From assembly GCA_964016885.1 (NCBI GenBank), contig OZ024742.1, positions 217,372,001-217,436,000 on the forward strand: 64,000 bases of DNA. Direction: 5' to 3'. The translations under genes and the position numbers were made by a program. Below the pieces are notes generated by a model that was not told where the DNA came from, searched no databases, and saw only the letters and a program-made list of their open reading frames with translations. Within the stretch, counting starts at the first letter, position 1. The number at the start of each line of letters is the position of its first letter. Below, in pieces: positions 25,336 through 43,728 of the stretch. The stretch is from Eledone cirrhosa (lineage: Eukaryota).

Positions 25336-25397
25336 ATGCTGCTGCGAACTGGAGAGTCCGTAAGTTCTATGTAATGCCCACTTTTATGAGAAAGTGA
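25336..25397 (+). promoter_or_regulatory. Two chained uORFs (25336-25374 MLLRTGESVSSM*; 25374-25397 MPTFMRK*)
   Basis: TAATG overlap at 25372-25376 and TGATG overlap at 25395-25399, read directly. Function is inferred. Confidence 0.5.
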
Positions 25398-28300
25398 TGG
25401 AGAACACTCTTCCCTGTGCACATATCCCACCATTGATTACTGCTGACTCCACAGCATCACCTGCTATCATTGAAAGATGTAGTTTGTACCAAAGGATGGG
25501 CAACTCTACAAAGGAAGCAGTGGGGAATAGTGATTTTGATAACAGCACAGAAGAAGAGGTGATTGCTACAAGTGAGAATGGCTTGGATAATTCAAATTTT
25601 GACTTTTATTCCTTGCCTCAACATCCTCAGAGCCAAACCGAAGGTGTCAGTCCAGCAAGCATTTTAGATAGCCACAGTCGATCCCAGAACAACAATAACA
25701 ACAATCGAATTAGTTATTACAATAACAATAGCTCATTTGATGAGGAATGTAGCAGTGCTGGTAGAGAAACAAAAAGTGATTCCCAAAACTTCCATGCCAT
25801 AGGTGATTTCCACTCTAAAAACCCTGTTACAGAACCACCATGTAACGGAGCTTCTGGTAACTGTGAAATCTCTTTGCATGAGTCCTTACCTTCTCTGGTA
25901 AGTACGGAGTCACAACTAGGAACTGTGCCAAAATGGCAAAGCTGTTCTCCTCTGCAATCTGTCAGTGCCTCAAACAATGAAAACTGCGAGACAGTTGTTA
26001 ACAATTTGCAGGCAGCAAGGCCAAAAGAAACCAGTAGTGATCCAAACCCTTCTTACCACTACCATCTTCCCCAGTATCACAGCCAGAACCATCATAGTCA
26101 TCATCATCATCATCATCACCATAGCCAGCAGCAGATAAATATCCCTGTCCATAGTAATTACAGTACTTCTGATAACAGGCGAAACACTTTCTCATCAGTG
26201 ATCCAGAAAGATAGCTCCACTTCTGTGAAACTGCATCAGCCAAAGCTATCTAAATCATTATTGAGTAAAAGTGATACAATTTCTTCCACACAGATGGCTG
26301 ATACTGCTGCTGTTGCCGCCGCTATTTCTACAAACACTACAACAATTACTACGTCTACTACAACAACAATGATGCCTTATAGCAATTGCACTCTTTTCAA
26401 ACAAAGCCCTCTGGTTCAAGTAAATGGGCCTGTTAATGGTAATATGCCTTGTTCCTCTAAATGTTACACTCTTCAACAAACCAATGGCCTTGTAATGACT
26501 CCAGATTTCAAGACCATCTCTAAGATATCACAGCTGCAGCATGTTGAGAATCAAAACCCCAAAAAGCATTCGGCTGTTAGTGACTTGGTAAATTATGAAG
26601 GTAGCCTTGATGTAGCTACTGCATCAAAATCGGACTTAATTCAGTCAAAGTTGAAAAATGCCAAGCAACAACAGCACACATGTAAATCCTTAAAATATGA
26701 AAACAATAGCAACATGATGAATTCCACTTCTGTGGCAGCTGGGACATCTGTATCTTGTATTAACTGCAACAACTGCACAAACACCAATACTACCACTAGC
26801 AGTAAGTTAGTGGGCAAAAAATGCAAAGCACTTTACAACTTGCAATGTAAGTTTCAAAAAAACCGGTTCATTTCTTCATTGCAAGACTGCTGTCGAGCTT
26901 GCAACAGCTTTGAAGGATGTTGTGGATCAAGTGAGTCTTTTGAATTGGAAACCGAACTTTTGTGCCCCAGTTACTCTTACTGTGATCCAGACAATATTGT
27001 GCATTATAATAAAGATAATAATTACAAGAGTCAGATTGGGACTTGTGTTGAGGAGAGCTCTGTTTCTGTTGGTGATAGCAATGCTACTTTAAACTCAAAT
27101 AACTTTCGCTCAAATGATTTAGGTTCTTCGGGAACAGGGGCTATAGACAATCGGGAAGAAGACTTTGGAGATTTTATTGAAGCAGATTTCCCCCCTGTGC
27201 AGGCAAGCCGTCTTATGTCAAGTTCTACCGATTCCACAGATTCATCTTCATCTCTGACCAGTAGTGACATCAATGAAACCAATAACCAACATATTGTTGC
27301 TAGTATAAATGATATTGCAATGTCAAGCCATGAACCCAGTTACAGCCACTTTCCAAATAGTAATTGTTTTAAGAATTGTGATCATAAAAAACACAACCAA
27401 CTTTCTTTTCCTAATCCCTCAACTAGTGCTTGCAATAACTCTAAATGTAGTGAAAATAGCTATGTTGGTTTGTCTGGGTTTGGTGATAGTAATAGTGTCA
27501 AGCATGAACATGGTAGTTCTGTGATAAAATGTGCTGATGTCTTGAAAGTTTCTTCTTCGTTACTGTCAAAATCTCCTTCTACTCAATCATCCCCATCAAC
27601 CTCACCCTCTTCTGAAACCTCACCTCCTACATTGTTATGTACCAGTGATAACCAGCTGCAAAGCAACTGTGTAAATAAACCTGAAAAAGAAGTTGGGTGC
27701 TCTGAAAACATCAGTGGTGTCAAAGTTCCACAGTGCCATAACTCTTTCACTGCAATGCAATTACCTTTGTGTGGAGCAATAAACAGCTGTCAACCTTCTG
27801 ATGATACTGTGATGTCTCCGGAAGTAGATTTTCTTGATTTTGATATTGTCTCCACAACCACACCAAACTTAGACTCGGAACAAAACTTGAACAGTGCTGG
27901 CAGCTCAACTAGTGCAATGGACATGGAGTTTCTCGAATTTGATTTGGCATCCACTTCCACCCCAAACTTAGAGCAAAACCTGAATAGTGCTGGTAGTTCC
28001 ACCGGTGCAATGGGCTTTGAGATTTCACTGAGTGAAATCCCTTATGCCGATGATGTTGACTCTGCTTGCCCTAGTCCAACTGGAGATATGCTCCAAATGA
28101 ACTCTAATGAATCAGCCCCTTCCAAAACACAATTAACAAATTGTGCTACAAATGATTTGAGTGCATCTAGCAGTAACTCTAATCTGTCTGCTCTTGAAGA
28201 TCCTACACTGCCTCACAGTCATTCTAATTTCCAAAACCATCACATGACACAGAAATGTTTCTCCAATCTAAATCTCGATGATCAAGATGATGTGTCAGTT

Positions 28301-28452
28301 GATTCAGAAGAAAGTGGTTCTCATGACAGCAATGAAATAGGAGAGGCAGATGATCACTGCCACTTAGTTTCTCTTTGTCTTTCACACAATGGACTTCAAA
28401 ACAATTTTCTGTCATCTCCAAGTTCACCAACTAGTGAGGACAGTGATTTCCG
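25397..28452 (+). CDS. Coding exon 1 (giant exon; exon starts at 25330) of an uncharacterised 1481-aa protein; low-complexity Ser/Asn/Cys/His-rich N-terminal region
   Basis: About 1020 open codons in AT-rich DNA. Poly-T tract then CAG acceptor ending 25329, in-frame upstream TAA at 25361, ATG at 25397 in gtgATGG context, donor CG|GTGAGT at 28453 (phase 2). Confidence 0.9.
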
Positions 28453-30215: not shown

Positions 30216-30378
30216 TGATATTCCCGGTACACAAGAACCAATCTATGAAGATATTGATAGGGTCCGGTTAGATAAATGCACTGCTGACAGTCCTGGTGAC
30301 AAATGCTGCTGCACCTCTCTTTCTGACACTGATCACATGACAGACTCACATGTTTTAAATATGCAGCATTCTAGTAAG
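30216..30378 (+). CDS. Coding exon 2 (R-DIPGTQEPIYEDIDR...MQHSSK)
   Basis: Pyrimidine tract and CCAG acceptor, donor AAG|GTAAGT. Phase 2 in and phase 0 out, matching both neighbours. Confidence 0.85.
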
Positions 30379-34374: not shown

Positions 34375-34515
34375 AGGAAACACTCAATGAAGTCAAGACG
34401 ATCTAGTGTGGAGCGTGTAATGATCTGGGAAGAAGACCAAGCTTACCATAGACAAGTAAAACGGTCAGAGACTGAAGTCTCAGTATGTGGCCCTCTTGCT
34501 GTCCTTAACATGTTG
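34375..34515 (+). CDS. Coding exon 3 (RKHS...MIWEEDQAYHRQ...SVCGPLAVLNML); carries the putative catalytic Cys
   Basis: ACAG acceptor, TTG|GTAAGT donor, 141 nt, phase 0/0. CG followed by a hydrophobic helix is typical of papain-fold enzymes. Confidence 0.9.
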
Positions 34516-34572
34516 GTAAGTTACACAATTCTGTTAGTTTCCCTGAAATGTTTTATATATATATATCTATAC

Positions 34573-34798
34573 ACAGTGTCCCCCAAAAATGTATACATAC
34601 TTTGATTACCTGTACAGGCAATATTTATTAGAATGCACAGCTTTTCCAAAACATAAAATGATCTATAGACATAATTCAATTGTATGTAAACACCCAAAAA
34701 TGTTTACATAATTTAAATAATGCATATAAAACAATTTATTTGAAATGCATTTTTTAAAGATTTTTTTGTGTACATTTTTGGGGGACGCATACACACTG
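34573..34798. mobile_element. Tc1/mariner-like MITE just downstream of exon 3
   Basis: TIRs gtcccccaaaaatgtataca / tgtgtacatttttgggggac. Confidence 0.65.
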
Positions 34799-35574
34799 GT
34801 AACAGTTCAACACATGAGCCTCATTCTAAAATGCTCATTTTTCAAGATGTTTGGCTAACTACATGTATGCTATCTCTCCTTTCTAACTTTTTCCTATTTT
34901 CTTTGTTTTTTTACTTTCTTTCATCAGCTTCCTATTTCTTCTTCTCCCTCTCAAACAACCTCTCTTCTCTTTCATTCTATCTTCCAATGAAGGATTAACA
35001 TTTGAAACATTAAGACTCTTTTCCTACTATATCAATCATCAAATTAATATATCATCAGTGTTTGTATTGTTCTCGTGTTAATTTTCCTTGTTCACTATAT
35101 ACACAAAGTAATTTTAAAAATCGACTTCAAATTTTATCTTTCCACGAATTTTAAAAAAATTAAATACCGGTAATATTCTGGTAGATAGATTGATTCAATT
35201 AAATATATTACTTAATTCTTAAAAGCCCAGGGTAAGAAATCATAAGTCAACCGATTGACAGAATAGGTAGAATTTTAGTAATTGTTCCAGTTCATTGCTT
35301 TGCAAGTTCAATACCCACTGAGGACAAGTTTACTATTTTTTTCTTTCTGGGTCAATAAAGTAAGTTAGTACTGAAGAATGATTCTTTTCTCTCTCTATCT
35401 CTCCTTCTCACAGTCACTTTTGGGATCAGTTATACCAGAACACTGTGGAAAGTTGCTAGGAGTCTATTACTAGGATTATCTTGTTTCCAAGCAATGGAGG
35501 TGGGTTGAAAGTGGAGCCATCCCTTCTAGTATTTAATAGTTAATACACACCAACATTGTGTATTGTGTGCAAAA

Positions 35575-35970
35575 TATTTCCTGAGAAAACCCTTCAGAGA
35601 AACACCATTTCGGCTGCTTGTATTCGCAATCATATTCTTTTGGCCTTTACCCAAGATTCATGACCATAGGTGTGGGTTGGCATGAACACCGAATTGAAAA
35701 TAGAAAGTTTGGCTTTTACACCTACCTCTCTTCTCCGAATTAAGAGATCCCAGCTCCTTACAGATTTTGCTGAACAGATTTTTCAGGCAAAACCAACTGG
35801 CAGGAGACCTCGAGCTAGATGGTTAGATAACATCCATGAGCTCAGCTGGTCTCGCTTGGAGATCCAGCCAGATCAATTGGAGATGGATGATTCTGACAGG
35901 ACCTGCTGGAAAGAGTACTTGAGGACTCTGCCCACCATAACTCTCCCCACCATAACTCTCCCCTAGCAGA
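35575..35970 (+). mobile_element. 5'-inverted RTE (Rex3/Expander-like) LINE fragment
   Basis: 35575-35735 is antisense (KAKLSIFNSVF, YGHESW, IQAAEM). From about 35735 it is sense (RIKRSQL..KPTGRRPRARWLD). Confidence 0.75.
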
Positions 35971-37029
35971 GAAGACTATATATACAGTTACTGACTAATG
36001 ATTTATCCATGAATGTATAAATAAACTAAGAGGTGATGTACAGAATGACATACATAAACATTCTCAGTTATTGTATTCTGAAGCTTGATTTGATCAATTG
36101 ACAATGCTTTTTTGGAAAATGGGTCATGATACTTTAGACAGTATAATTTACCTAACTAGTTTCAATTAGAATGTATGTATGGCTAGTTCACCCTGCTCTC
36201 CCACCACCATCAACCAACTTTACAGCATAGACCCACTACTATCACAATACCTTCACTTACTAACTAAACTATTTACAATTTAGCTTACCAATGTACGCCC
36301 CACACTCTCTCTCTCTCTCTCCAGTAACTGATCCAGCAGTAATGCCTATTTGCATTAGATAACCAAGAACCCCATTTTCCAACGAATTGGTGAAGGTGAC
36401 CTGTCTAGGAAGCTACACAATCTCAAGATCCTCTGTTGAATCTTTTCGTAGTCACCATGTACTGAAAGATCTTAATTAATAGACCTTTGAGAATCTTGTT
36501 AGATTTTTTTAAAGACTGGCCTCAAGATGTCCTCTTTCTTAGACTGGTAGTTTTTACATTTGTAATGTACTAAAACAAGATTGCAAGCTAGATTATTCTA
36601 AAGTATTTAAGCAAGGTACATAACTCTTTGTGCTTCAACCAGAAGGCATCAAAACATTTATCTTGTAAACAGCTTTAGGAACAAAATTGTAAGAAGCTCT
36701 TTAGTTCTTTAGGCTTTTGGTTTTCAAACTTTTCCATTATACCCCTCCAAAGAAAAGTAACCTGTCATTTCCACTGTAATCCAATATTTAGTTTTATGGT
36801 GACTTCACAATAAAAAAGGAAATAGCAATATAACTTGCTACTATAGGAACAAACTTACCATTTCTTTTTTTATTGTTCTCACTCACAGACAATTTATTTT
36901 ACCCAGCAACTTTAGCTCTTCCTATTTTTTTATTTTCTCATTTAATCAACTGTTCACACTGTAGGTAAAATGGAGTACCTTTCTTGCTCTGAAATGGCTT
37001 ACTAACTCTATTGATTTTTCTGTCTTCTT

Positions 37030-38200
37030 CTTCGCCTACTTATTCCTGAGAGGGTTGAGAGCAGGTCCTATCAGAAGCAATCGTTTCCAAATGATTCAGT
37101 TGGATCCCCAAGCGAGACCAGCCAAACTCATGGATGTTATCCAACCATCTTGCTCGAGGTCTATCCCTGGGTCTCCTGCTGGTTGGTTTTGCCCATAAAA
37201 TCTGTCTAGCAGTTCTTTTTTGAGACATTCTAACCACATGCCCGTAGTAGTGACTTATTGATCTCTGATCTATGCACTCTATCAAGTAATGTTATTCCAA
37301 AGACCCTTCAGAGGAACCCCATTTCAGCTGCTTGTATTCGTGATTGTATTCTTTCAGTCATTACACTTACCCATACATAAGAGTTGGCACAAATAACAAA
37401 TTGAAGATAGCAGGTTTGGCTTTGATGCCTGCCTCTTATCTTCTGATTACTGGATGCTGAAGCTGGTGTATTACTGCATCAGCTCCTGTAATTCTTGCAC
37501 TTAATTCAGTCTCCTGCCTTCCATCACTCATGAAAATGGCCCTGAGATACTTGAACTTCTCTACTTGCTTCAATGGAACTCTATTTACATGTAGAGAGCA
37601 CTTCACAGGCTTCCTTCAGTGTCTCAGTTTTCACAGCACTGATTTTCATTCCAGCCATGCAGCACTTGGCATCAAACCTTTTAAGTCTAAGTCGAAGATC
37701 ACCTTCTGTCTAGTTAAGTAACACCATGTTGTCTACCGATTCCAGCCAACTGATTTTTCACTCGCCAGTCATGATGCCACTTCCAACCCAGCTATGCATG
37801 TCAATCCTGTTCATGTAACTAATGAACAAGAAAGGTGACAGTACGCACCCTTGGTGGAGTCCATCTCCCACATTGAATGGTTTTGATTTAGCACCATTTA
37901 ACCAAACACAAATACTCAGGCATCTGTATAGACATCAGGGCAGCAACAAGCTGACCATTGATCCCATACTCCTTCACAACTTTCCACAGTAGGTCCCAAG
38001 GAACATGGTCATATGCCTTTTCAAAGTTGACAAAATAAGAATGTAGCTCTAGGCAATACTCCCACGATTTCTTGAAGACGTACAGCAGTATGAATATTTG
38101 GTCAGTTGTGCTGTGTCCAGGGCGAAAACCGCACTGTTCATTAGCTAGCTTGGACTCAACAATCTCCTTGCATCTCTTTGCCTGACACTTAGCATAGACC
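37030..38200 (-). mobile_element. Degenerate RTE (Rex3/Expander-like) LINE, RT to 3' end
   Basis: EQCGFRPGHSTTDQIF, FVNFEKAYDHVP, GLHQGCVLSPFLF, FKYLR, YYGHVVRM..RPRARWLD. The YADD motif has decayed. Confidence 0.9.
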
Positions 38201-38365
38201 TTTTAACACCTTGGGCTTGATTTAATTGCTTTTGTGACCTCAGCCTCTGAGAGATTAGTCACTGCTTTTGATTAAATAAATAATGTTAATTTTATTTTAT
38301 TTTATACCTCTATACAGAATTAATGATATTTTTGTGTCTTTTTTTTTTCGTATCTGTGGTGCTAG

Positions 38366-38477
38366 AATGCATTTAATATCTTACTAGACAAGTCTAAAGT
38401 ATTAGAAAAGGCTCCAGTCAATTTGAGAGACTCTTCAGCTCCAGTTCCACAATACTTATTTTCTAGGGCAAAAGCAG
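38366..38477 (+). CDS. Coding exon 4 (NAFNILL...APVPQYLFSRAKA-G)
   Basis: T-rich tract, CTAG acceptor, CAG|GTAAGT donor, 112 nt open, phase 0/1. Not in the ORF track; translated by hand. Confidence 0.85.
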
Positions 38478-39276
38478 GTAAGTAAATTTTATAAGATCAG
38501 CTAAAAAAAATGTCAAAGTTATTTGAAATGTGTTTTTTTTTTGGGGGGGGGGGGGGTGATCCCATGAAGTTTTAACAGTTTTTAACATAAATGTAAATAT
38601 TTTTTTCCTACTCCTAACTAATGTTACTTATTGTTCTATTAATTTTAATATTGAAGTAAGTTGTTTGTGATTTCACTACTAGCTAGCTTTTCTAATGGTT
38701 ACTATCCAGGTGTGAAGTAAGCCTGGTACATCACAAGGGAAACAATGTGAGAAATCTGGCAGCATCTCAACCATATAACCACTGTATTTTTATATCAAAT
38801 GTAAATTATATTTTACTCTCTAAGTCTATATTCAAATAGATTCTGAAACCAATTTCTTCTCTATAATAGAGTACACTGTGTAATGTGATTGGGCATCCAG
38901 CTGTAGAAAATTTGCCAAACAAAGGGCCACAAGAACTCTTCAGCTATGTCAAAGACATACCAACCTCCCTAGTGTTGGTGTCGTGATAAAATGTACTTGG
39001 TAGAATGCACAACAGTATGTAAGCAAGATCCAACCCTTCAATCCCCAGCTCCTCCAGTTCGTCTGGGAGGTCAATATCTCTGTTTGAGTATTGACTCGTT
39101 CTGCAAAATTCTCTCCAACCCTTGCTAGCAGGGAAAGTGAACATTATATGATGATGATGATGATGATGATGATGATATGATGAACTCTTCAAATGTTCTA
39201 GTCAAAAATATTTTATTTTTGATATATTTCTCTCTCCAATGTTCACATTCAATGTTTTTTCCATATATTCATATAG

Positions 39277-39408
39277 GTACTACTGCTGAGGATTTAATCA
39301 AGTTTGTTGAATCTTTAACAAATGGGGCCATTAAAGGGAGATTTTTTGATTTCTATCCACCCCGTGATGTTCAAGTTTTGAAATGGCTTGGAGAATGGAT
39401 AAAAAAAG
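39277..39408 (+). CDS. Coding exon 5 (G-TTAEDLIKFVESLTNGAIKGRFFDFYPP...WLGEWIKK)
   Basis: ATAG acceptor, AAG|GTTGGA donor (weak), 132 nt, phase 1/1. Confidence 0.85.
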
Positions 39409-40254
39409 GTTGGAAGAAAATTTCTTTTCCAATAGTTTTTTTTTTTTTTTTTGCTTTAATTGAACTCTTTCCTTGTCAGAATAATTAACTTATATAATAT
39501 CATACAATATAAACATTACATTTTTTATTTTTCATCCATCACTAAGAACTGAAAAAGTATATTACTTAAACTTTGTAAAATATAACTGACATTAGATAGA
39601 CATTAAATAGTGATGCTAGCATAGAGAATGGATGTTAAACGGTGATGATGATGTGTGTGTTTGTAAAAAAGTTCACTTCAGGTGCCACCCCACTATACAG
39701 CATTTTGGTTAATTCTTCAACTATAGTCTCAAGTCAACCAATGCCTTGTGAGTAAATTTGGTAAATAGAAGCTGTAAAAGAAGCCAGTCATGTGAGTGTG
39801 CATAAGTGAGTGCATTTACACATGTTTAGTTTACTGAGAATGCTTAAAAAAACCAGTAATATTTGTTTGTCATCTGTAAATTATACAGTGCAATGTTTTC
39901 ACTAAGATGAGCAGTATATATAATACTTATAAATAAAAGTATGGTTTAACATCAGGAAAGGCATCCAGCCATAGAAAAAACTGCCTCAAAAAACTCTCAT
40001 CCAACACATGCCAACATGGAAAAAAAACATATAAATTATGATGATTGCACCCATTACACCCTATAAAGTAGTTGTGCTGGTGCCACAATAAAATGTACCT
40101 AATAAACTCTGTAACAGGGTTGACATTAGTAAAAACATCCAACCATAGAAAACATACCAAAATATGGAATGTATAAGCATGGCAAGGTTATTTTATCTCA
40201 GATCATGACAACCTGTCTAACCCATGTTAGCATGAGAAGTGGATAGAAAATAAT

Positions 40255-40439
40255 TGTTTCTACGTTAGGCACAAGGCCAGCAAATACCCAGTGCATTACT
40301 GGTACTTTATTTTATCGACCCCGTAAGGATGAAAGGCAAAGTAAACCTCGGCAGGTTTTGAACTCAGACCGTAAAGGGACGTAACCATGCTGGAAAGCAT
40401 GGCGTCCGACTCTCCACCGATACTGCCAATCCACCGCCA
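40255..40439 (-). mobile_element. SINE family 1 with 18-bp TSD, nested in the tail of an older RTE-tailed SINE
   Basis: aagtggatagaaaataat at 40237-40254 and 40440-40457. Confidence 0.88.
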
Positions 40440-40779
40440 AAGTGGATAGAAAATAATGATGATATATGAGGAATTGGATTATTATCAGTATTTGGCTTTA
40501 GATATTTTTCTTTGTCTTCACGTGTTACTCCTATGTTCTGGCATGGATTTGACAAATCTGTAATGCTACATTATCTTCCCACTATCTAATCTGGGAGGTA
40601 ACTGTTCTCCACACCACTTCTATTGTTGATTTATTAGTAGGAAATTACTGTGTCTGTTGTGTGGCCATATTTAGTCCTGCTTTTACATGTATATGGAATA
40701 TAGATAGCCTGTTGTGTATTTGCACCACTAATCCACGGCCTTGGATATTTCATGGGCCTGGCTGATTCAGAAACTCTTT

Positions 40780-40975
40780 GCACTCTCCAATATGTGGTGA
40801 CAAAGTTGATTAAATCAACCCCAGTACTTTATTGGTACTTTATCTTATCAACCATAGAAAGATGAAAGGCAAAGTTGACCTTGGCAAGATTTGAACTCAG
40901 AATGTAAAGAGTCTGAACAAATACCATGATGGCATTTTATCCAACACTTTACCAATTCTGCCAGTCCACCACCCT
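40780..40975 (-). mobile_element. SINE family 1-related copy ending about 55 nt before exon 6
   Basis: gatgaaaggcaaagttgacc..atttgaactcagaa core. Confidence 0.75.
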
Positions 40976-41030
40976 TTCTCAGTTGCATAAATATTAATAA
41001 TACTATTCATTTACATATATCTTATTTCAG

Positions 41031-41135
41031 ATGCTGTACCTATTGCTACTTTAAATATTCAAAAGGCTGTTCAACCTGGTTGGGCAATCCCAGATTCCTG
41101 GCATCATCAAATGATCTATGGTGTTAGCTCAAAGG
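41031..41135 (+). CDS. Coding exon 6 (D-AVPIATLNIQK...PDSWHHQMIYGVSSK); carries the putative catalytic His
   Basis: TTTCAG acceptor, AGG|GTGAGA donor, 105 nt, phase 1/1. Translated by hand. Confidence 0.88.
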
Positions 41136-41259
41136 GTGAGAATATCTGTTAGCCAGTTGCTTATTTGAACTTGTTTATAGACTTTATATTCTGTAGCTTT
41201 AACTTTTACTATTCTATTTGTTTTTGTTTTTTAATAAAATGCCAACACTGTCATTTCAG

Positions 41260-41442
41260 GTGCTTATATGACAAACCCTTTGAAATTAGTGGGTGAAAAA
41301 CCTTTAATGCAACAACTGACAAGTGATAGGGTCCTGTTAATTAAGCGACAGGATATCATCAGCCGTTTTCATGAAGACACTAACCTATCTAGCTTAATGT
41401 GTCATGAAGAACCTCATCGGTGGAGAACCATGAATGTATTAG
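41260..41442 (+). CDS. Coding exon 7 (G-AYMTNPL...RWRTMNVL); carries the putative catalytic Asn
   Basis: TTTCAG acceptor after a 124-nt intron, TAG|GTACTG donor, 183 nt, phase 1/1. Confidence 0.88.
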
Positions 41443-42749
41443 GTACTGTACTATTTCTTCCCTCTTAATATTTATAATAGTTGGTCCATTAGATGTATGA
41501 AATTGTTTTGTTTAAAAAATGGCATTATTCAAGTAATTTAAAAAAGCAGCTAGACCTTTTGGAAACATGAACCAATACACACACACACAAGAGAGAGAAA
41601 TGACTGCACCTCACCTCTAAGGATGTAAGGATGAAATGTGATGAGTGAGGGCAAGTCTCATCCAGCTGACCTGTGATCAGTCACTCCAGCCATAAACCTT
41701 CGAATGTAATTGTAATTTAAAGGATATTGGACTGTTGTTTCTAGCAGATTGAATCCTTTATAAAGACACTTAGTTATATAGGTTTACAATAATAGAAGCA
41801 GAACAAGGATGATGAGAGGAAGTGATACAGTGAAAAATCCCAGATGTGATGAACCTAGATTGAAATGAAGAATGGAGAATGTCACACTCATCTTAGCATG
41901 GAGATGATGGCTGCTTAATCTGAACGTGCCAAAAGTCATTCTCTTCATATTACGGCTAGCTTATACATTACTATAAAACCTGAGTAATGAATAGTCAAGA
42001 GGTTAAGAAGTTCATATAGAAGCCTACTGGATAAGTGTACATGTCTTTATGGTATATTTACACCATTGCCCAGTTTAATACTGTCACCAAGGTTTGGATG
42101 CCTTCAGTGTATGGACAGTATGTAATCACCTAACCAATTTGGCCTCAATACATGACAGCCCATCTAATATACACAAGCATGGAAAATAGACATTAAATAG
42201 TGATGATGTTGATTCTATTATCCAGTAGATTCTAGTATCCAGTAATAAGCAAATAAATAGTGATGATGTTGATTCTAGTATCCAGTAATAAGCAATAAAT
42301 CACTACTTTGATGTACTGCTTCTTACTGCAATAACTTGTGAGTCATGGGGTTTTCCTTTCCTTTCCTTTCCTTTCCTTTCCTTTCAACAATCAGAAAGGC
42401 TTTTTGAACTGCTGCCCTTGCTACTCTGGTTGAATTGTTTTAAAAAATAGCATTATAGCCCTGTAAAAACTGAAGAAGTTGTGTATGAGTGTAGGCATTG
42501 GTGTATGGTTAACAAGTTATATTTGCAACCAAGTAACGCAAGAATTTATCCGATTGCATAGTACCTCGAGCAAGTGTCTTTTACCTTAATCTTGGGTTGA
42601 CCATAATCTTATGAATGGAAACCTGTTATATATGATGCAAACTCCTCAGCCTGTCTGGGAGGTCAGTAGCACAGCTTCAATACTGATTTGGTCTATGTAG
42701 ACCTGTCCAACCCTTACTAGCAGAGAAAACAAACATTAAACAATGATCT

Positions 42750-43145
42750 CCAAGTGAGACCAACTGAGCTCATGGATGTTATCCAACCATCTTGCTTGTT
42801 ATCTGCTTCTAGGTCTTCTGTCAGTATGCTTTTCCTGTAAAATCTGTCTAGTGAATCTTCCCTTAGATATTTTAACTACATATCCATAGTGTCAGAGCTG
42901 TGATCTCTCAATTCAGAAAAGTAGTGCCTCTGCCTGAAGCAACTCACTGATCTTTGAGCTACATACCCTATTGAGTAACATTACTCCAAAGCTCTTCAGA
43001 AGAAGGCTATTTTGGATCACATTCTTTTGGTCATTACCCAAGATTTGTGACCATAAGTAAGGGTAGGCATGAACACTGAATTTAAGATAGAAAGTTTAGC
43101 TTTTACACCTTCTTCCCTTTTTCTGATGACAGTGCAGAATTGTTT
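42750..43145 (-). mobile_element. Degenerate RTE (Rex3-like) fragment abutting the last acceptor
   Basis: Collinear with about 37110-37460. Related pieces lie at about 34020-34190 (+) and 49985-50190 (-). Confidence 0.75.
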
Positions 43146-43174
43146 TATTTTTTTATTTATACTTTCTCTTTCAG

Positions 43175-43728
43175 GTCAAGTAGTCAATATACTTCGTGAA
43201 GCTAGCATGCCTCGTGTCCCTGGCTATCGACCACAACTTACTCAACACATCCATATTCCAGCCGCATATCGTGCCGGTATCACTTTATTTGTGCGTGCAG
43301 ATATGGAAGTATATCAACATTTAAAGCGTGTCCCAAACCTGCCTCTTCAGATTAACCTGTCACGAGAATTGATGCCACTTAGCATTGAAGACAGTAATGG
43401 CATGGATGACTCAAACAGCTGTAATAGCAGCAGTGGCAGCTGCAGTAGCAACAGTAGCTGCAACCAAAGAACAAGTAAAATTGATGGTTTTGATGGTAAT
43501 GATAATTGTGCAGACTACAACAAAGAAAGTTTTGATTCTGCCACCACTTCAACACTAGCTCTTCCTTCCTCTCCTACTATTAGCAATGCTGCTACAGCTG
43601 CTGCTGCTGCTTCTTTTGTGTCCCCACCAATTGCACACCTTCATGACTACACAACAAGTAGACAAAGATATCTTGTACCTGGTTTCTCGCATAGAAATAA
43701 TGTTTATGTCCATTATTTCAAAAGTTAA
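43175..43728 (+). CDS. Terminal coding exon 8 (G-QVVNILRE...HIHIPAAYRAGITLFVR...YFKS*)
   Basis: Strong pyrimidine tract and TCAG acceptor, phase 1, open to TAA at 43726-43728. Conserved-looking start, then a Ser/Ala-rich tail. Confidence 0.88.

Follow-up and report, generated by a model that had tools for sequence, protein, structure and literature searches.

A predicted papain-like domain of an unnamed eukaryotic family, probably a cysteine peptidase, encoded by six exons in Eledone cirrhosa

The window analysed here is a 64,000-nucleotide stretch of the Eledone cirrhosa genome (contig OZ024742.1, positions 217,372,001 to 217,436,000), which contains a gene for a protein with a long N-terminal arm and a papain-like domain. 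A sequence-only reading of the window had assembled this domain from small exons, likened it to C39 peptidases and phytochelatin synthase (PCS), and proposed an invertebrate thiol hydrolase, transpeptidase or deconjugase with a Cys-His-Asn triad. The present analysis indicates that the domain defines an unnamed eukaryotic family without a Pfam model, lying inside the known papain-like superfamily; it is not a new kind of system.

Exon chain and family membership

Eight exons joined on the forward strand give a single open frame of 1,481 amino acids, with GT..AG at every intron; two alternative chains, shifted by 1-2 nt, contain 44 and 31 stops. The coding exons, in window coordinates, are as follows.

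25397-28452, forward strand: coding exon 1, from Met1; Ser/Asn/Thr-rich, likely disordered arm; N-terminus agrees with annotated octopus proteins
30216-30378, forward strand: coding exon 2; contains the IYEDI motif at 30241-30255
34375-34515, forward strand: coding exon 3; the papain-fold domain begins; Arg1103 (34462) in the oxyanion Gln column; predicted catalytic Cys1111 (34486)
38366-38477, forward strand: coding exon 4; conserved R..YL.SR.xA helix
39277-39408, forward strand: coding exon 5; G-T-T motif, RFF strand, WL..W helix
41031-41135, forward strand: coding exon 6; TLNxQ strand; D-x-W-H-H-Q-M-x-x-G with predicted catalytic His1226 (41102)
41260-41442, forward strand: coding exon 7; Asn1242-Pro (41274); octopod-specific Ser-to-Arg at domain position 178
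43175-43728, forward strand: coding exon 8; domain end (IPA.Y..G.TLF, to about 43347), low-complexity tail, stop codon

The papain-fold domain covers amino acids 1083-1355 (273 residues, 34402-43347), and its division over six exons, as first proposed, is confirmed. The triad codons lie at 34486-34488 (Cys1111), 41102-41104 (His1226) and 41274-41276 (Asn1242). These triad positions, already given by the sequence-only reading, were reproduced in the single-frame chain. The annotated proteins of Octopus vulgaris, O. sinensis and O. bimaculoides are 93-94% identical and gap-free across the 273-residue domain. At four of the five junctions inside the domain the 11-residue junction peptides are identical in the three octopuses. 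A search with exon 6 retrieved an O. vulgaris protein, an Argonauta protein and an unnamed transcript-like record of 1,626 amino acids; the 1,626-residue protein of this relative is encoded on contiguous Logan contigs of 5.3-9.6 kb, which would fit a spliced transcript. Three sequencing runs, in which introns are covered as DNA would be and exon joints are not seen, are uninformative on splicing. When exon 7 or a hemichordate member was used to search the genome, this locus alone was matched, as would fit a single copy. In the O. vulgaris cluster, the RefSeq proteins of O. sinensis and O. bimaculoides are labelled “serine-rich adhesin for platelets”, a label that likely reflects low complexity. 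Several introns contain very high-copy repeats, and intron 3 carries a retroelement reverse-transcriptase fragment (37891-38202, reverse strand; PF00078, E 4.8e-8).

With the O. vulgaris domain as query, 532 clusters were found at E<=0.001 and 116 at E<=1e-30; the cluster listing used here comprises the best 150 of the 532. Named members occur in animals (the sponge Ephydatia, the coral Acropora, molluscs, Capitella, a centipede, many insects, Diadema, Saccoglossus, Branchiostoma and lampreys) and in protists (Polarella, Cymbomonas, Gefionella). Because lamprey and protist members exist, the family is not confined to invertebrates, and this part of the initial proposal falls. No mammalian member was seen among the named records, in a search that was not systematic. 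Metagenome loci add members from gene-dense eukaryotes, assigned by neighbouring genes; a prokaryotic or viral origin of the gene-dense intronless loci was rejected, the neighbours being eukaryotic (kinesin, Ras, 14-3-3, ALG3). Six intronless members on gene-dense eukaryotic contigs (L044, L046, L055, L056, L062 and L063) are very AT-rich (15-24% G+C). A pattern scan of prokaryotic genomes and viral contigs with one short motif, which is weak evidence, found no family member. In total, 271 proteins were collected, among which 269 match the family profile, 193 span the whole domain and 152 remain below 85% identity.

No Pfam match above the cut-off was obtained for the domain in the sets of 3, 25, 47 and 52 proteins scanned. 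Sub-threshold matches were to Phytochelatin (E 0.0066 and 0.025) and C39_2 (E 0.061, 14.3 bits against a cut-off of 24). The three nearest ESM Atlas clusters share no common Pfam 38.1 family, and the next are ACTMAP-like, BIVM, DUF6885 and PCS. Automatic UniRef names, glutathione gamma-glutamylcysteinyltransferase for one record and ubiquitinyl hydrolase for another, already hint at a papain-like enzyme. In full-text searches, which mostly do not reach subscription journals, neither the family nor the GARPK motif in its N-terminal arm was found described. The 2023 classification of papain-like proteins (PMC10318531) takes Pfam, COG/KOG, the PDB and human proteins as its basis; its sections 4, 6 and 13 and Table S1 contain no entry recognisable as this family.

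Predicted fold and active site

The O. vulgaris domain was modelled with AlphaFold2 from an alignment of 148 sequences, giving a predicted local distance difference test score (pLDDT) of 97 and a predicted template modelling score of 0.92. The predicted fold is papain-like, a core helix followed by an antiparallel sheet. Cys29 of the model begins helix 29-40, His144 is on strand 143-151 and Asn160 lies past strand 156-158; this placement, taken with the fold match, suggests that Cys, His and Asn are adjacent in space. A fold search against 48,161 solved chains ranked the neighbours as follows: (i) PeiR at Z 16.0 (root mean square deviation 2.1, 143 residues aligned), 22oc at Z 15.8 and the Nostoc PCS Alr0975 at Z 15.1 (163 aligned); (ii) the C39 domains of PCAT1, LahT and ComA at Z 14.2-14.6; (iii) UfSP2 (Z 11.5), UfSP1 (Z 10.7), Mug105 (Z 10.4), ATG4A (Z 10.1) and ZUP1 (Z 9.7). 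There were 54 chains at Z>=8, and the top 50 rows are papain-like. The ranking was unchanged when a canonical, Gln-keeping member was modelled (pLDDT 92), and Foldseek agrees with the papain neighbourhood at weak E-values near 0.001. Sequence searches of solved structures, with the single domain or with two profiles, gave nothing at E<=10, and a viral fold search gave phage endolysin and peptidase domains only, at a template modelling score of about 0.4. The papain fold in the C39/PCS neighbourhood, first read from the letters of the window, is borne out by the model, the fold search and Foldseek. The tied best fold 22oc (Z 15.8-16.2) is a 2026 PDB entry titled “P210 CD lyase”, for which no paper was found.

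The conservation of the active site was checked across the family. The Cys-His-Asn triad is intact in 138 of the 152 non-redundant members, and the third residue is Asn in 184 of 193 sequences and Asp in 4. Among the 138 triad-intact members the His-to-Asn spacing is 16 in 125, and Pro follows the Asn in 111; both the triad and the spacing-plus-NP motif of the sequence-only reading are common in the family. Asp occupies the third position before the His in all 138, Gly the sixth position after it in 137, and a Gln is found 6-8 residues upstream of the Cys in 133.

This spacing corresponds to the register of the C39 domain of CvaB, given in the available part of PMC3335142 as Gln26, Cys32, Asp102, His105, Asp121 and Pro122. 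C39 peptidases (PF03412; ComA, PCAT1, LahT, CvaB) and the C39-like PeiR share with the family a common papain core (Z 14-17), a Gln six residues before Cys-Gly, a G-T/S motif, the Asp three before the His, His-x5-Gly, and a third residue 16 after the His that is followed by Pro. Unlike C39 domains, the family has Asn rather than Asp as third residue, is about 270 residues long instead of 140, and has helical insertions with a Cys-to-His distance of about 115. It is also eukaryotic, lacks the ABC transporter and matches no C39 profile (PF03412/PF13529) above the cut-off.

The second His of the WHH motif was considered as the catalytic residue and is disfavoured; the first His agrees with the C39 register and does not vary in alignment A3, which left out about 20 deviant rows, while over all rows the two do not separate (95% vs 97%). 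Four divergent members, P0231 (Chrysoperla carnea), P0233, P0230 and P0221, have W-Q-H with a third-position Asp, the first His being lost and the second kept; they are possibly inactive or rewired paralogues. The cephalopod record P0135 is missing the segment that leads up to the catalytic Cys, as well as six residues ahead of the His; it would be a splice variant, a degraded copy or a product of misassembly.

Proposed function and its alternatives

We consider it probable, at roughly 60%, that the family is a specific intracellular cysteine peptidase which cuts a short piece off a protein or peptide substrate, possibly in connection with N-terminal acetylation; catalysis, location and substrate class are all what we infer. 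Cys1111, with which the core helix begins, would attack the scissile amide, and His1226, oriented by Asn1242, would act as general acid/base, so that an acyl-enzyme would form and then be hydrolysed. The oxyanion hole would, in most members, be provided by the Gln six positions ahead of the Cys. The location is most likely cytosolic or nuclear, and a crude hydropathy scan found no hydrophobic leader in the octopus protein.

The arm of 1,080 residues upstream of the domain is likely disordered, and its short motifs are conserved across protostomes. They were counted in the 85 members with an N-terminal region of at least 200 residues against 50 shuffles, using patterns chosen after reading the sequences and with related species not independent. 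D[FY][ILV][ED]xD[FM] occurs in 69 of the 85 (none in the 50 shuffles), [AV]DL[PH]xxF[FY] in 41, GA[IRV]PK in 38 (shuffle mean 0.0), C[IV]Y[TS]YxG in 27, ARPK in 23 (0.12) and [IVL]YE[DE][IV] in 6 (0.18); shuffle means over the five main patterns range from 0 to 0.18. Besides IYEDI in exon 2, the protein of this gene carries two such motifs:

26012-26026, forward strand: AARPK, a variant of the GA[IRV]PK / ARPK motif
27170-27190, forward strand: DFIEADF, the acidic-hydrophobic D[FY][ILV][ED]xD[FM] motif

Such motifs are likely to recruit partners, the arm docking them through these conserved elements, and YEDI (within IYEDI) resembles an SH2 ligand. The long arm is absent from the sponge, coral, amphioxus and lamprey members and from most protist members. 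Further acidic-hydrophobic repeats, SPEVDFLDFD and MEFLEFD, lie at 27827-27950 and are like the arthropod motif SPEMDFLEMDF. In the Branchiostoma records P0029 and P0043 a short N-terminus carries DFEDCLE following an acidic run, which we take to resemble an FFAT motif.

One alternative is that the family hydrolyses or transpeptidates a small molecule. Its substrate would then be glutathione or a glutathione conjugate, as for PCS, or else an N-acyl amide that the fused GNAT produces. Alr0975 ties with the best fold and has the longest alignment (Z 15.1-15.8, 163 residues), and the weak Phytochelatin matches and one automatic UniRef name point the same way; fusions to GNAT, HDAC-type and M28/M42 domains would also suit amide metabolism. 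The Q-x5-C-G register is common to PCS (C83, PF05023; Nostoc Alr0975, AtPCS1) and the family. Alignment by hhalign places the family Gln on the PCS Gln, weakly (E 0.027), and gave no meaningful alignment with the second PCS exon. Several features nevertheless render a small-molecule substrate unlikely. The family has no equivalent of Arg152/Arg173; R152 of AtPCS1, ten residues before the His, is the essential PCS Arg in the available part of PMC3855540, and an Arg at this position occurs in 11 of 138 members and in none of the residues listed in the strand register. The third residue lies 16 positions after the His (18 in PCS) and is Asn where PCS has Asp, and the long arm with docking-like motifs would better suit a protein substrate. 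The genome moreover encodes a separate true PCS (G000:C18:36488826-36490196, loci L006 and L007; PF05023 E 3.8e-46) with TQDEPAYCG and GHFSP motifs. The identification of the present gene as PCS was rejected, because the substrate Arg is not conserved and the genome has its own PCS.

Deconjugation of ubiquitin or a ubiquitin-like modifier, in the manner of UfSP, ATG4 or ZUP1, was also weighed and appears very unlikely. C39 enzymes cleave after Gly-Gly, like deubiquitinases. The folds of UfSP2, UfSP1, Mug105, ATG4A and ZUP1 do match (Z 9.7-11.5), and one member bears the ubiquitinyl hydrolase name, but these folds stand 4-6 Z units under the C39/PCS group and the members scanned contain no ubiquitin-binding Pfam domain. 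The Asp-Pro-His box and Cys-Asp-His order of UfSP1/ATG4 (PMC10318531, section 6) are absent: the family order is Cys-His-Asn, with the His in the canonical strand and then Asn-Pro. Since neither the PCS substrate Arg nor the Asp-Pro-His box is present, the transpeptidase and deconjugase parts of the initial proposal are less likely than protein processing, which is favoured.

The nearest named cluster by language-model features (0.94) is ACTMAP / C19orf54 (PF21646), which works with NAA80; it would be analogous in having an intracellular papain-like domain and a possible pairing with an N-terminal acetyltransferase. In actin maturation, as described in the available part of PMC11735805, ACTMAP cuts and NAA80 then acetylates; the ACTMAP nucleophile is C132 in the available part of PMC13367750. 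Unlike ACTMAP, the members in the scanned sets do not match PF21646. The ACTMAP profile had no match in this genome, a result that is uninformative because it had none in any control either. The family also occurs in protists, whereas actin maturation is described as animal-specific in the consulted part of PMC11735805. BIVM (PF28452), DUF6885 and DUF3335 (PF11814) lie in the same papain cluster I neighbourhood (features 0.93 and 0.92); BIVM, likened by these features, is likewise an orphan papain-like domain, and DUF6885 and DUF3335 differ in that they gave no Pfam match in the members scanned. The C39-like DUF3335 is often GNAT-fused, according to the available sections of PMC10318531.

In five non-animal records, P0101, P0108 (Cymbomonas), P0234, P0249 and locus L031, the domain is fused to one RimI/NAT-like GNAT unit whose best matches are RimI and N-terminal acetyltransferases. 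The unit precedes the peptidase in three records and follows it in two, a DWHGG motif is present in four of the five (P0234 is cut short before its position), and a helical segment of P0101 matches P0108 and P0234. In a quick tree the fused rows are divided between two clades with strong support, though the fusion may have had a single origin. When prokaryotic relatives of the fused GNAT were sought, a single match came back, partial and generic. By analogy with ACTMAP-NAA80, the family may perform cut-and-acetylate processing of protein N-termini, a suggestion that we hold to be doubtful. More speculative still is an ancient second eukaryotic system of N-terminal maturation, in which the papain-fold peptidase would expose or remove an N-terminal residue and a RimI/NAT-like acetyltransferase would cap it; the two would be fused in algae and other protists, the animal peptidase would be recruited via its motif-bearing disordered arm, and octopods would have re-tuned or silenced the oxyanion site.

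A number of observations weigh against the peptidase reading and its coupling to acetylation. Fourteen of the 152 members lack the full triad. No animal record examined has a GNAT fusion, and this genome, searched with a fused protein at reduced sensitivity, gave the peptidase exons only. Four of the five fused records stem from environmental assemblies. The fusions may be promiscuous, because other protist members carry unrelated domains (leucine-rich repeat, M28/M42 peptidase, phosphatase or HDAC). As regards the present copy, replacement of the CvaB Gln by Lys, Glu or His (Q26K/E/H) nearly abolished secretion and D121N was inactive (available part of PMC3335142), and AtPCS1 Q50N was inactive (available part of PMC3855540); the octopod Arg could therefore inactivate it.

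The octopod copy and the wider family

The sequence-only reading had noted that the oxyanion Gln is absent. This is real for the present gene, in which Arg1103 occupies the Gln column, and does not extend to the family: the Gln is kept in 133 of 138 triad-intact members, so that losing it is characteristic of octopods and not of the family. At this site the cephalopod sequences carry two inserted residues; a decapodiform-like record retains the Gln, and octopods, alone among the cephalopods examined, have Gln-to-Arg together with a second Ser-to-Arg change at a 92%-conserved column. In the louse clade the pair P0104 (Polyplax) and P0206 lost the Gln independently, with a one-residue insertion and the triad kept.

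Since Arg and a two-residue insertion replace the Gln, this copy is likely slower or altered. We lean slightly towards its being still active: the octopus domain retains 47 of 52 conserved columns (median 50), its branch in a quick tree is not accelerated (0.18 vs 0.17 for a Gln-keeping relative), and identity to that relative is 75% in the domain vs 48% in the arm. The alternative, that the family is catalytic and the octopod copy is an attenuated enzyme or a pseudo-enzyme retained as a binding scaffold, concerns this copy only, overlaps the other readings and is possible, if tentative. The two octopod substitutions, the effect of basic residues in CvaB and the existence of relatives without the triad speak for such attenuation. 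Set against these are the retained triad and conserved columns, the louse-clade sequences that keep the triad after losing the Gln, the insertion, which may loop the Arg away, and the little effect of CvaB Q26A and Q26N in the available part of PMC3335142.

As judged from its sequences, the family is conserved and probably catalytic, and it is listed neither in Pfam or NCBIfam nor in the above sections of the 2023 papain-superfamily classification. Medical interest is limited, because no mammalian member is among the named records, which were not searched exhaustively. ACTMAP, the named neighbour closest to the family, turned out to be the protease that matures actin. The family is a comparable open target: a Cys-to-Ala control is at hand, there are small single-domain members (250-350 residues: coral, amphioxus, lamprey), and the acetyltransferase fusions provide a lead.

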